A stretch of 64,000 bases of DNA from an uncultured Spirochaetota bacterium (GTDB lineage: Bacteria > Spirochaetota > Spirochaetia > SZUA-6 > CAVTHK01). The notes under the pieces are model-generated. The model had not been told where the DNA came from. It saw nothing but the letters and a program-made list of their open reading frames with translations, and ran no database searches. The DNA lies in NCBI GenBank assembly GCA_963734495.1, contig CAVTHK010000011.1, positions 32,001 through 96,000 on the forward strand. Reading direction: 5' to 3'. Below are positions 78 through 3,158 of the stretch, piece by piece. A program made the translations under genes and the position numbers. Position 1 is the first letter of the stretch; each line of letters begins with the position of its first letter.

Positions 78-1040
78 TCAGCCCGCCTCGGTGCGGTCGC
101 GGCCGCTCTCCTTGGCTCTGTAGAGCGCCTTGTCCGCCTTCTCCTTGAGCTCCTCCAGCGTGCGGGCGTGGGCCGGGTAGACCGCGACGCCGAGGCTGCA
201 GGTCAGCCGGAGGTCGGGATGCTCGGCGAAGCGCAGGCGGCGCACCTCGTCGTTGACCGCGCGGCAGCGCTCGACCGCGGCCGCGGCGTCGCGTCCCGGC
301 AGGATAAAGGCGAACTCGTCGCCGCCGTAGCGGACCAGGATGTCGGTCGCCGCGAAGGCGCGGCGAAAAATCCCCGCCGCCTCGACGATCAGCCGGTCGC
401 AGAACGCCGTTCCGAAGGTCCTGTTGAGGTCGCCGAAACGATCGAGGTCGAACATGGCGAGCGCGAGCGTCGACCTCTCGAGCTCCGCGCGGCGGACGAT
501 GCCGCCGAGCGACTCGTCGTAGAACCTGCGGTTGAAAAGCCCGGTGGCCTCGTCGGTGATGGCGCGCTTGCGCGCCCCCTCGCCCCATTTGACCATCTGG
601 GACAACAGAGAGCCGGTGTTCCCGAGCCTCGTCGCGGTGATGGTGCCCATCCGCCGCAGGATCGCCGCGGCGGCCTGCGGCCGGCTCGCGATCAGCTCGA
701 GGAAGTCATTGGCGGCGAGCGCGAGCAGCTCGCAGTCCGCGATCGCGCGGCAGGTCGCCGAGCGCGCCGCCTGCTCGATGATCGACATCTCCCCGAGAAA
801 GCCACCCGCCCCGATCTCGCTCAGCGTGATCTCGGCGCCGTCGGGAGTCTTGACCGTGACCGCCATGCTGCCCGAGAGGATGACGTAGAGCTCGTCGCCC
901 GGGTCGCCCTCGCTGAACAGGGTCGCTCCCTTGCGGAGCGTGCGCAGCTGCATGCGCCGGGCGACCTGGGCCCGCTCGGCGGCGGGCAGGTCCGTGAAGA
1001 TCCCGATCCCGCGCAGCGCCGTCCCGCCTCCGGCCTTCAT
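78..1040 (-). CDS. cNMP-binding domain + GGDEF domain protein (intact GGDEF motif)
   Basis: N-half LFSEGDPGDELYVILSG...GEMSIIEQAARSAT (cNMP fold); C-half TDEATGLFNRR, MFDLDRF, RYGGDEF, ADKALYRAKESGRD. Confidence 0.95.
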   Translation of the reverse strand: MKAGGGTALRGIGIFTDLPAAERAQVARRMQLRTLRKGATLFSEGDPGDELYVILSGSMAVTVKTPDGAEITLSEIGAGGFLGEMSIIEQAARSATCRAIADCELLALAANDFLELIASRPQAAAAILRRMGTITATRLGNTGSLLSQMVKWGEGARKRAITDEATGLFNRRFYDESLGGIVRRAELERSTLALAMFDLDRFGDLNRTFGTAFCDRLIVEAAGIFRRAFAATDILVRYGGDEFAFILPGRDAAAAVERCRAVNDEVRRLRFAEHPDLRLTCSLGVAVYPAHARTLEELKEKADKALYRAKESGRDRTEAG

Positions 1041-1999
1041 CGGGCATCCTCGGGGAACAGGATCGCGCCGCCGCCCTTCTGCCGCCCGAGCAGCGGAAGC
1101 CCGACCGCGGCTGCGATCAGCGCCTCACCGCTCGCTCCGTGCTCCGGAAACAGCGCCACGCCGAAGCTGGTGGAAAGGCGCACCTGCGTGGCCCCGACGA
1201 TCGGCGAGAGGTCGAGGCGCTCCAGGGCCGCCCGGATCTCCTCCGCCCGCCGCAGCGAGGCCGCGCGGTCCGAGAGCGGAAGGACCGCGGCGAACTCGTT
1301 GCCGGTGTAGCGCGCCGCCGCCTCGGTGTCGCGCAGGTGGCGGCTGAGCTCGGTGGCCATCAGGCGCAGCACCGCGTCGCCGGCCTCGTGGCCCCAGGTG
1401 TCGTTGATGAGCTTGAAGTTGTCGGGCTTGAGCATCAGCAGCGCCACGGGCCCCTCGCCCTTGAACCAGTCGGACAGCTTTTCCTCGAGGAAGGCCTTGT
1501 TGTAAAGCCCGGTGAGCTTGTCCCCGTAGACCTGGCGCCGGGCCTCCTGGACCCAGGGGGAGTTCTCCTTGATGAGCGCATTGGCGTTGCGGATGCGGCC
1601 CGCGATGACGCGCAGCGACGCGAACAGCAGCGCGGCGAGGACCGCGGGCTCGCCCTCGAACGCGGCGTCGAAGCGGACGCCCCTGGCCGGGAAACGCACG
1701 ACGACCGCATCGCCGCCCGCGATGGCCGTCGCGTCGCGCGGCGTCTGGTCGAGGAGGTCGAGCTCGCCGAAGGTGTCGCCCGCCACCAGCTCGGCGATCA
1801 CCGAAGCCTCGCCCTCGTCGCCGCGGTTCACGATCCGGACCGTCCCCTCGACGACGACGAACAGCGCGTCGCCCGGATCGTCCCGGTCGAAGATGGTCTC
1901 ACCCGCGCCGTAGGCATGGAGACGGCTGCGCTCGGCGATGGCCTTGAGCTCGCCGAGGCTCATCGTGGCGAAGACCTCGGACCTGCGGAGCGCCGACAT
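1037..1999 (-). CDS. cNMP-binding domain + degenerate GGDEF (TGNEF) protein
   Basis: IFDRDDPGDALFVVVEG...GELDLLDQTPRDAT; DKLTGLYNK, KPDNFKLINDTWGHEAGD, RYTGNEF; ATG at 1999 preceded by GGAG; 4-bp overlap with the downstream gene. Confidence 0.92.
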   Translation of the reverse strand: MSALRRSEVFATMSLGELKAIAERSRLHAYGAGETIFDRDDPGDALFVVVEGTVRIVNRGDEGEASVIAELVAGDTFGELDLLDQTPRDATAIAGGDAVVVRFPARGVRFDAAFEGEPAVLAALLFASLRVIAGRIRNANALIKENSPWVQEARRQVYGDKLTGLYNKAFLEEKLSDWFKGEGPVALLMLKPDNFKLINDTWGHEAGDAVLRLMATELSRHLRDTEAAARYTGNEFAAVLPLSDRAASLRRAEEIRAALERLDLSPIVGATQVRLSTSFGVALFPEHGASGEALIAAAVGLPLLGRQKGGGAILFPEDAR

Positions 2000-2153: not shown

Positions 2154-3158
2154 TCACCGGCTGCTCACGCGCAGGCGCTGCAGCTCGGGCTTTCCCTGCA
2201 GGAGGTGGTTGCGCAGCGCCTCCTGGTAGGCGGTCGAGCCGTCCTTGCCCCGGATCGAGGGATCGGCGCCGGCGTCAAGGAGGAGAGCGACGACGGCGGG
2301 GGTGTTCGTCGCGGCCGCGTACATGAGCGCCGTCATGCCCTGCGCGTCGCGGGCGTCGATCTTCGCGCCCGCCTGGAGCAGCGCCCTGAAGATGCCCGCG
2401 TTCCCGTTCCACCGCGCGGCGTCCATCAGGGGAGTGGAGCCGCCGGACCCTTCGACCCTGGCCCCGGCCGCCAGGATGATGCGGATGACCTCGGGGTTCG
2501 CGTTCCTGGTCGCGGCCATCGAGAGCGTCGCCGGCCCTTCGATTCCGGCGTCGTCGATCACGGCCCCGGCGGCCAGGAGGATCCTGACGATGTCGGCGCT
2601 CGCGTCCGACATGGGTTTCGTCGTGAGGGGCGGCGACCAGACCGCATAGGTCAGGGCGGTCCAGCCCCTGGTCGTCTTCGCGACGATGACCGCTCCGGCC
2701 GCGAGCAGCGCGCGGACCGCCGCGGGGTTCTTGTCGGCGGCCGCGGCCATGAGCGGCGTGTACCCCTCGGCCGTCCCCGCGTTGACTCGACCGCCCGCCG
2801 CGATGAGCGCCTTGAGCACATCCGGGTTCTTGTTTCGGCCCGCGGCCGCCGTCATCGCGGTGTAGCCCGAGCCGTTGTCCTCGTCCATGAGCGAGCCGGC
2901 CTCGAGAAGCACCCTCACGACCTCGGGGTCGGGGTTGCTTTCCGCTGCGGCGATCAGCGGCGTCTGGTGGAAGAAATTGCGTTCGCCGAGCGACGCCCCG
3001 GCCTTGAGCGCAGCCCGGATCTCCTCGGGCTTGCCGCTCCTGGCCAGGTCGACGAGCTTTCCTTTCGATGTTTGCGCGCAAACGACCGACGCGGCGAGCG
3101 CGAAGGCCGCCACGACGCGAAACGTTGAATTGTTCAGGAGAGACCTCCCCCGCCCCAC
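2154..3158 (-). CDS. Ankyrin repeat protein, probably exported
   Basis: Repeated TPLxxAA...VxxLLxAGA units; hydrophobic leader VVAAFALAASVVCA; exact start uncertain. Confidence 0.9.
   Translation of the reverse strand: MGRGRSLLNNSTFRVVAAFALAASVVCAQTSKGKLVDLARSGKPEEIRAALKAGASLGERNFFHQTPLIAAAESNPDPEVVRVLLEAGSLMDEDNGSGYTAMTAAAGRNKNPDVLKALIAAGGRVNAGTAEGYTPLMAAAADKNPAAVRALLAAGAVIVAKTTRGWTALTYAVWSPPLTTKPMSDASADIVRILLAAGAVIDDAGIEGPATLSMAATRNANPEVIRIILAAGARVEGSGGSTPLMDAARWNGNAGIFRALLQAGAKIDARDAQGMTALMYAAATNTPAVVALLLDAGADPSIRGKDGSTAYQEALRNHLLQGKPELQRLRVSSR

Follow-up and report, generated by a model that had tools for sequence, protein, structure and literature searches.

GGDEF cyclases such as PleD and WspR are treated as symmetric homodimers, and a live subunit permanently tied to a metal-free partner would change that picture. 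Such a partnership is probably encoded near the start of a 64,000-nucleotide stretch of DNA from an uncultured Spirochaetota bacterium (GenBank assembly GCA_963734495.1, contig CAVTHK010000011.1, positions 32,001 to 96,000); this whole stretch is called the window below. Two adjoining genes, here named A and B, each encode a cyclic-nucleotide-binding (cNMP) domain followed by a GGDEF domain, and together they probably form a two-part synthase of cyclic di-GMP (c-di-GMP) with the catalytic metal site on one partner only. Residues are numbered as in PleD, the numbers having been mapped through alignments of B with PleD, A with WspR and A with B. In passages of two reports on GGDEF enzymes (PMC12943098, PMC7288161), two magnesium ions are bound by D327, the backbone of I328 and E370, the guanine by N335 and D344, and the phosphates by K442, R446 and the backbone of residues 330–332; the first of these reports also names K332 as a transition-state stabiliser. 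Excerpts of a study of the Hypr GGDEF enzyme GacA (PMC6456294) describe contacts across the dimer: the fourth GGDEF residue, a Glu, takes the proton from the 3'-OH of the GTP in the opposite domain, and a conserved Arg, replaced by Tyr in Hypr enzymes, stacks on the base in the other site.

B (P0002, 1037–1999) is the upstream gene and A (P0001, 78–1040) the downstream one; both are open reading frames of 320 residues on the minus strand, as are all features of the pair given here. The stop codon of B (TGA) and the start codon of A (ATG) share the sequence ATGA (1037–1040), which agrees with the description of the two, in an original prediction made from the letters of the window, as translationally coupled genes of about 320 residues. 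The Shine–Dalgarno-like sequence GAGGA (1047–1051), six nucleotides upstream of the ATG of A and within the last codons of B (P-E-D), would serve the downstream gene. GGAG (2005–2008), likewise Shine–Dalgarno-like, stands five nucleotides upstream of the ATG of B at 1999 and so favours this start, giving 320 residues, over the GTG at 2119; the closest B homologue (P0003) also has 320 residues, in agreement with this choice. Pfam places the cNMP-binding domain of B at residues 29–107 (1679–1915; phosphate-binding cassette GE...RDA) and its GGDEF-like domain, supported by the PleD alignment, at residues 159–298 (1106–1525); in A the cNMP-binding domain occupies residues 33–119 (684–944; canonical cassette GE...RSA) and the GGDEF domain, supported by alignments to solved cyclases, residues 160–316 (93–563). 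Both proteins are members of the GGDEF family by PF00990 (A, 1.1e-34 and 120 bits; B, 2.2e-31 and 109.3 bits; cut-off 23.8), and both exceed the cut-offs of TIGR00254 (127.7 and 107.4 bits; cut-off 37.4) and PF00027 (A, 1e-25 and 90 bits; B, 6.1e-20 and 71.4 bits; cut-off 27.5). The general GGDEF domain model is the sole NCBIfam model above its cut-off for A, B or a fusion of the two. The proteins are 29% identical across 297 residues, match solved GGDEF cyclases in the PDB at 1e-19 to 1e-24, and are the single A/B pair of their genome.

The two active sites keep different residues. A reads D-L-D-R-F-G..N-R..G-T..C-D, RYGGDEF and AK..GR; it keeps D327, D329, K442 and R446 and carries the changes K332 to G, D336 to R, H340 to T and G343 to C. 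The kept metal Asp and the Gly at 332 are seen in D-L-D-R-F-G (432–449), and the G-G-D-E-F loop lies at 312–326, both read directly from the sequence, as are the corresponding motifs of B. B reads K-P-D-N-F-K..N-D..G-H..G-D and RYTGNEF; K332, D336, H340 and G343 are kept, D327 has become K, I328 P, G368 T and E370 N. Lys-Pro thus stands in place of the metal-binding Asp327/Ile328 in K-P-D-N-F-K (1412–1429), beside an intact K332, and T-G-N-E-F (1292–1306) stands in place of GG(D/E)EF. N335 and D344 are retained by both proteins. The RxxD inhibitory site, R359-x-x-D362, which precedes the GGDEF loop by five residues, reads AATD in A and RDTE in B.

We followed these residues through the best 120 homologues listed for B (46–100% identity) and the best 120 listed for A (48–100%) by a word-index search, to which all counts out of 120 refer, and through a second set of 96 modules from 50 loci (50 B modules and 46 A modules). 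The named sources among the 240 listed homologues are Spirochaetota. B has K327, P328, D329, N330, F331, K332, N335, D336, G339, H340, G343 and D344 in 120/120, and all of these except N330, which is variable there, recur in 50/50 modules. In the loop, G369 and N370 are each present in 119/120 and E371 in 112/120, and position 368 is M, N, L, A, Q or S, Gly not being among the residues given. The A family has D327, D329, F331, N335, G339, D344, D362, R366, the GGDEF loop, K442 and R446 in 120/120, the loop in 46/46 modules as well; position 332 is G in 108 and S in 12 and never K, position 336 is K, T, A or R and never D, and His is found at 340 in 1/120. These states recur far more often than chance would allow, and the homologues thus uphold what had been proposed from the window alone: that A keeps D327, GGDEF and the C-terminal K..GR and loses K332, D336 and H340, that B keeps the K/N/D/GH/GD segment and loses the metal ligands (KPD, TGNEF), and that the guanine-reading Asn and Asp are kept by both (N335 and D344, 120/120 in each family). 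The companion proposal that B has simply lost its C-terminal Lys and Arg needs correction, for B carries a conserved motif of its own there, L-P-L-x-G-R-x-R/K-G-G, with Arg in the K442 column and Gly in the R446 column (119/120 each).

A scan of all columns for asymmetric conservation, with no positions preselected, returned the same set of residues in A and B; it also flagged the N-R-R motif, D362, invariant residues of the linker helix specific to each family, and the tail L-I-L-F-P-E-D of B. This tail (window 1041–1060, minus strand), found in at least 90% of the B proteins of the window's own subclade (type 1, described below), ends in codons spelling GAGGA, and part of its conservation may act at the RNA level, as the likely ribosome-binding site of A. 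Position 330 of A is R in 85, H in 26 and K in 9 of the 120; basic or aromatic residues are common there in ordinary cyclases, and R330 as a substitute in cis for the missing K332 is speculative. R359 of the RxxD site is found in 23/120 A and 3/120 B homologues, and D362 in 12/120 B homologues; the site is often present in the type-2 and fused forms described below. A profile of the B family, run against 1.84 billion cluster representatives, matched 2638 proteins at E ≤ 1e-30, and the 147 that were examined among the best 150 contained 109 instances of the K-P-D motif in proteins of at most 720 residues. Since its altered states are near-invariant in homologues and modules and recur among the profile matches, B is not decaying: as judged from these alignments, its altered site is under strong purifying selection and B is a conserved variant rather than a dying gene.

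The same counts bear on the possibility that neither protein is an enzyme and that the pair is a receptor or scaffold for cyclic nucleotides and guanine nucleotides. A has no Lys at the position proposed in passages of PMC12943098 to stabilise the transition state, and B has no metal ligands, as this explanation would have it. D327, D329, GGDEF, K442, R446 and N-R-R are nevertheless each present in 120/120 A homologues, which would not be expected of a mere receptor, and type-1 A and B mostly have no RxxD site, the place where degenerate GGDEF receptors bind c-di-GMP. We therefore consider a receptor or scaffold improbable.

The residue state of A is also unusual within its own genome, where we found 17 GGDEF-like domain matches. 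Nine domains other than that of A combine D327 with GG[DE]EF, and K332, D336 and H340 are kept in eight of the nine, so that the state of A is unusual for a stand-alone cyclase. The ninth belongs to a 556-residue open reading frame (G000:C17:31134-32801, plus strand) with two GGDEF domains in tandem: the first is canonical (D-F-D-Y-F-K..N-D..G-H, GGDEF), and the second, the exception, keeps D327, GGEEF and K442 and has H332, M336 and Y340, the same three residues being lost as in A. Because this exception is a tandem protein, the loss of K332, D336 and H340 is seen among these domains only with a second GGDEF domain physically coupled. The genome also encodes a membrane-anchored GGDEF protein (G000:C10:228812-230527, plus strand) with the non-canonical residues N327, G332, E336 and S340, an intact GGDEF loop and R442/R446.

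Pairing of A and B is real, old and widespread. In 401 genomes drawn from the phylum and searched at E ≤ 1e-40, B matches were found in 92 genomes (50 of 153 genera) and A matches in 105 (54 of 153 genera), so that roughly one in four of the spirochaete genomes sampled has this ancient family. Listed places were merged and each was given to the query with the lower E-value. Among the matches listed there were 138 B-type and 140 A-type places; an A-type gene lay directly downstream on the same strand at 115 of the 138 B-type places, an A-type gene was present in 92/92 B-bearing genomes, and 13 genomes had A-like genes only, all of lower similarity. At 26 of 30 fetched loci B was followed by A. 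In all 20 fetched open reading frames of 657–687 residues (L031–L050) a single chain carries a B module and, after it, an A module. One such fusion, used as a database query, retrieved 67 proteins at E ≤ 1e-50, and the order B-A was found in 59 of the 64 that were examined. Such gene fusions are a classic sign of a physical working partnership between the two parts.

The remaining five of the 64 proteins (P0476–P0480) have an A module with a C-terminal DHH/DHHA1 phosphoesterase, which in P0476 has D-x-D, DHH and GGGH motifs that look intact. Two of the five carry a type-1 A module (D-L-D-R-F-G), and at L029:2007-3935 (plus strand) a gene of the A-DHH/DHHA1 type comes after a B gene. This linkage might tie the system to the turnover of linear dinucleotides.

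Of the 96 modules, we placed 81 in a maximum-likelihood tree (quick search, LG+G4, support by the Shimodaira–Hasegawa-like approximate likelihood ratio test, SH-aLRT), omitting 14 rows from seven near-identical genus mates (L005, L006, L007, L010, L014, L015 and L038) and the A module of L008, which has more than five X. A branch with support 100 separates the A modules from the B modules, and three subclades recur in both halves at 99–100, the exception being B of type 2, in which seven core rows join at SH-aLRT 87 and L011 and L022 stand apart. Type 1 comprises the window pair, the Treponema denticola group and others: its B has N370, no RxxD site, the L-P-L-x-G-R motif and the F-P-E-D tail, and its A has G or S at 332 with 336 and 340 variable. 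In type 2 (L012, L017, L021, L027, L028 and L029) B usually reads R-G-D-E-F, and A has R332, E or D at 336, often H340, and the RxxD site. In the fused type (L031–L050) B reads R-G-N-E-F and A has R332, E336 and H340. Across the type-2 and fused A modules, position 332 is R and position 336 is E (D in 1/26, L028); H340 is kept in 20/20 fusion A modules and in 4/6 of the named type-2 modules, with N in L012 and L027.

K327-P328 is present in 50/50 B modules, and the loss of the metal Asp by B is thus the founding event. On this tree the family goes back to one old duplication followed by co-diversification of A and B, the two halves mirroring each other; the fusion arose once, and the loss of K332, D336 and H340 by A is a later step confined to type 1. 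The proposal that the losses in A and B are complementary rather than random therefore survives in a narrower form: the asymmetric pattern is conserved and looks specific to each role, but the mirror image holds for type 1 only and is not founding. A check of homologous pairs for the same pattern likewise gave a divided answer, with pairing at 115 of the 138 listed places and complementarity absent from type-2 and fused A (R332, E336 and often H340).

That A and B might be independent paralogues, adjacent merely through tandem duplication, is an explanation to which their relationship as 29% identical paralogues and the commonness of tandem duplicates would lend themselves. It is very hard to reconcile with adjacency at 115/138 listed places across about 50 genera, with mirrored subclades in the tree, with a clade in which the two are fused (20/20 fetched; 59/64 examined) and with overlapping genes, and we give it almost no weight.

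We modelled full-length A and B as a complex, with family alignments, two GTP and two Mg as input. The A:B model scored 0.68 (0.68, 0.66 and 0.69 in individual runs), as compared with 0.00 for the best of three controls, and passed a mark reached by 58/80 solved complexes and 2/110 mismatched pairs, a calibration that is only rough here since our own alignments and riding ligands were used. The A:B runs agree in at least 94% of contacts, with a partner pLDDT (predicted local distance difference test) of at least 87. The confident interface joins residues 117–162 of A with residues 114–165 of B, in parallel and in register, and also includes parts of the cNMP domains and the first helices of the GGDEF domains. 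A parallel A:B stalk of this form would set the GGDEF domain of A beside that of B, the geometry required by a model with one catalytic centre. Of the heterodimer that had been proposed, the pairing is supported by the conserved pair, the fusions and the A:B model (0.68 against 0.00), and hetero-specificity is not.

On balance, we lean towards reading A and B as a heteromeric cyclase with one catalytic half-site, A binding the donor and B providing a metal-free acceptor site. As the complex model suggests, the two would lie parallel, held together by the helices at the C-terminal ends of their cNMP domains and by their helical linkers, and this pairing would put their GGDEF domains face to face. 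A would be sensor and catalyst at once, with an intact cyclic-nucleotide pocket and, as metal ligands, D327 and the third GGDEF residue; it would also supply K442 and R446, which hold the pyrophosphate, the general-base Glu, and the Arg that packs against the base in the partner. B would be a conserved non-catalytic half-site that offers the guanine readers N335 and D344, a phosphate loop with K332, and D336 and H340. It would hold a guanine nucleotide without metal, and with Lys-Pro for the Asp and Asn for the second ligand it should be unable to activate the alpha-phosphate of that nucleotide. Deprotonated by the Glu of A, the 3'-OH of the nucleotide held by B would attack the alpha-phosphate of the Mg-GTP of A to give the linear dinucleotide pppGpG, and formation of c-di-GMP would require this intermediate to bind again in reverse, for a second round at that one centre. 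The activating ligand on A would be cAMP or cGMP. K332, D336 and H340 would be acceptor-side residues, acting on the nucleotide of B or across the dimer, which would account for their retention in B and for A being free to lose them.

If the reaction runs one way, from the B site to the A site, the residues acting across the dimer should be invariant in A and relaxed in B, and the counts match. The stacking Arg is the first R of N-R-R, by the alignment of A to the Hypr structure. E371 and N-R-R are each invariant in A (120/120); in B the first Arg of N-R-R is K in 105, R in 13 and Q in 2, and E371 is kept in 112/120. The same residues lend no support to the composite site of complementary halves, in the manner of class III cyclases, that had been inferred for the pair, because the Glu and Arg that act in trans are kept in A and are not supplied by B; nothing in the literature that we examined shows K332, D336 or H340 acting in trans. 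As described in passages of a WspR study (PMC2270323), that enzyme releases pppGpG and turns purified pppGpG into c-di-GMP, which makes release and re-entry of the intermediate chemically plausible. The product of the pair would be c-di-GMP, made in two rounds, or pppGpG, and the sequences cannot tell which. A stronger proposal, that A:B is a one-bond GGDEF synthase that releases pppGpG (pGpG where A is of the A-DHH/DHHA1 type) as a signal of its own under the control of cAMP or cGMP, we regard as unlikely.

Several observations weigh against a heteromeric cyclase with a single half-site. The catalytic loops and residues are outside the list of confident A:B contacts. The pass of the A:B model may stem from a resemblance to dimers of cNMP-domain proteins with solved structures, and the model, A:B being the one combination run, supports pairing and would not speak to hetero-specificity. 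AlphaFold2 models of a natural B-A fusion gave a pLDDT of 83.2 and a pTM (predicted template modelling score) of 0.38 with 20 sequences, and 81.5 and 0.42 with 66; the domains are confident, the linker helices and mutual arrangement are not, and the interface is therefore unreadable. Type-2 and fused A are near-canonical and could act as ordinary A:A cyclases within a higher oligomer, and the general-base Glu, needless for a purely passive acceptor site, is retained by B in 112/120. No A adjoins 23 of the 138 listed B-type places. Four of the 30 fetched loci have a solo B gene (L016:1477-2610, minus; L023:1462-3063, minus; L026:1462-3129, minus; L030:1363-2445, plus). These solo genes have K-P-D-N-F-K and an RxxD site, their GGDEF/HGDEF loop is intact or almost so, two of them have an N-terminal extension of about 200 residues, and together they form one B subclade in genomes that also hold paired or fused copies. 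Finally, our searches found no biochemical data on any member of a pair.

The main rival would have A as an ordinary homodimeric diguanylate cyclase activated by cyclic nucleotides and B as a regulatory pseudo-enzyme, which might titrate A into inactive A:B dimers or, in an (A:B)2 assembly where two A domains meet, might detect a guanine nucleotide such as GTP and relay the signal. A holds every residue known to be needed for binding metal and GTP, type-2 and fused A are near-canonical and often have the RxxD inhibitory site, and the complex model shows pairing without catalytic juxtaposition. Regulation by degenerate GGDEF domains that bind GTP or c-di-GMP is, moreover, a known theme. What a regulatory B leaves unexplained is type-1 A, which has none of K332, D336 and H340 (kept in 8/9 own-genome domains and in 120/120 listed B), so that an A:A site would lack them twice. 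Nor does it sit well with the ATGA overlap and the single-chain fusion, which enforce a 1:1 ratio better suited to a subunit than to a titrating inhibitor, or with a parallel A:B coiled coil, which would set the GGDEF domain of A beside that of B and not beside another A. We hold this explanation to be a possible one, with some doubt, and keep the heteromeric cyclase with one half-site as our reading.

Control by cyclic nucleotides probably enters through A. The phosphate-binding cassette binds cyclic nucleotides through its Gly-Glu and Arg. In A the cassette GE..RSA is near-invariant, with G, R, S and A in 119/120 each and E in 115/120, and in B the cassette Arg is kept in the window protein and in 112/120 listed close homologues; the Treponema denticola group has Gln in its place, and other lineages have F, Y, M or H. 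The alignments therefore favour control through A rather than through B, and the idea of a cyclic-nucleotide-gated pair holds for the former protein and is weakened for the latter, whose cassette Arg has been lost in several lineages. No gene for a cAMP or cGMP cyclase adjoins the window pair in the gene neighbourhood that we examined.

The neighbours of the pair are not conserved, the upstream gene being a different one at the Treponema-group locus. In the window, an ankyrin-repeat protein of 334 residues with a signal-peptide-like N-terminus (2154–3158, minus strand; Ank_2, 7.2e-38) is encoded 155 nucleotides upstream of B; the Treponema-group locus lacks this gene. Beyond it, further upstream, come genes for an enolase-superfamily protein and an amidohydrolase. 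On the other side, a gene for a 1526-residue protein with Ig-like repeats (L051:1458-6035, plus strand, equal to G000:C11:27458-32035; Big_7, 9e-68, and Big_13, 3.9e-26) ends just inside the window and converges on the 3' end of A. The sequencing runs listed as containing positions 1–2200 of the window are all DNA runs, with shares of at most 0.20, and no RNA run is among them.

Literature searches returned no paper on a cNMP-GGDEF pair, on a diguanylate cyclase made of two different chains, one of them a dedicated degenerate subunit, or on a K-P-D variant of GGDEF. Proteins identical to those of locus L009, from Treponema denticola and T. putidum, are named "GGDEF domain-containing protein" or "cyclic nucleotide binding domain/GGDEF domain protein"; several sources label B-type proteins "diguanylate cyclase", a label against which the present results caution. 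Passages of PMC12878829 mention DgcA (TDE0125), the one characterised cyclase of T. denticola that our searches brought up. We considered this protein as an orthologue of A, which could have told against obligate pairing, and rejected it: the NCBIfam equivalog model for DgcA (NF041606; cut-off 370) matches a separate 378-residue protein of the same genome at 614.6 bits, and the proteins of the pair score at most 82.8 bits. DgcA/TDE0125 is thus most likely a different gene from the pair, with NF041606 equated to TDE0125 by inference.

The residues kept by A and B split the "ultra-conserved" GGDEF set into those that activate the donor GTP and K332, D336 and H340, which seemingly serve the acceptor side only; the literature that we examined assigns no function to D336 or H340. 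If the one-bond reading is true, the pair would be a natural dissection of donor-site and acceptor-site functions for all GGDEF enzymes, and it raises the question of whether a GGDEF pair with one centre closes the ring or releases a linear dinucleotide. The system should be of interest to the c-di-GMP field and is readily testable with recombinant proteins.

Several known systems resemble the pair. GdpP is a GGDEF-DHH/DHHA1 protein with a degenerate GGDEF domain; the five A-DHH/DHHA1 relatives are like it in their C-terminal DHH/DHHA1 and differ in having the intact GGDEF domain of A, and the window A is without this extension. XC_0249 of Xanthomonas is reportedly a cGMP-activated single protein, with no paired degenerate paralogue described. 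In a passage of PMC3770947 it is, like A and B, a cNMP-binding domain followed by a GGDEF domain. The match of A to the Pfam model of the Cas10 palm2 domain is below its cut-off (22 versus 27 bits). Cas10 has a live palm domain beside a degenerate one, and cGAS and DncV have one catalytic centre in which a linear intermediate is repositioned for ring closure. Cas10 is a distant relative, cGAS and DncV are CD-NTases of another fold, and no membership based on homology is claimed.

The Hypr enzyme GacA is like the pair in its asymmetric use of two half-sites and in the importance of the cross-dimer Glu and of the Arg or Tyr of N-R-R (passages of PMC6456294). The same passages describe GacA as a homodimer that breaks symmetry to make cyclic GMP-AMP with both sites live, and Hypr enzymes as carrying Ser at 344 and a residue other than Arg at the cross-dimer position. 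In A both D344 and the Arg are kept, and B has D344 (120/120 listed in each case) with Lys at the Arg position in 105/120, which sets both apart from Hypr enzymes. PleD and WspR share with the pair the fold and the family, the metal, guanine and phosphate ligands of A, and a sensor domain joined to a dimerising helical linker. The pair differs from them in that two unlike chains pair and that metal ligands are found on one only; type-1 A is without K332, D336 and H340, B has K-P for D327/I328 and N for E370, and in type 1 the full RxxD site is found in neither A nor B.

The likeness to the class III cyclases is a loose one. In mammalian adenylyl cyclase (C1/C2) and in soluble guanylyl cyclase (alpha/beta) both subunits build each site, and the product is a cyclic mononucleotide. 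They share with A and B the pairing of paralogous catalytic domains, of which one has a working site and the other a degenerate one, and the existence of fused single chains. The difference lies in the chemistry: each GGDEF domain binds its own GTP and two nucleotides are joined, so that one live half-site would yield no finished product but one bond.

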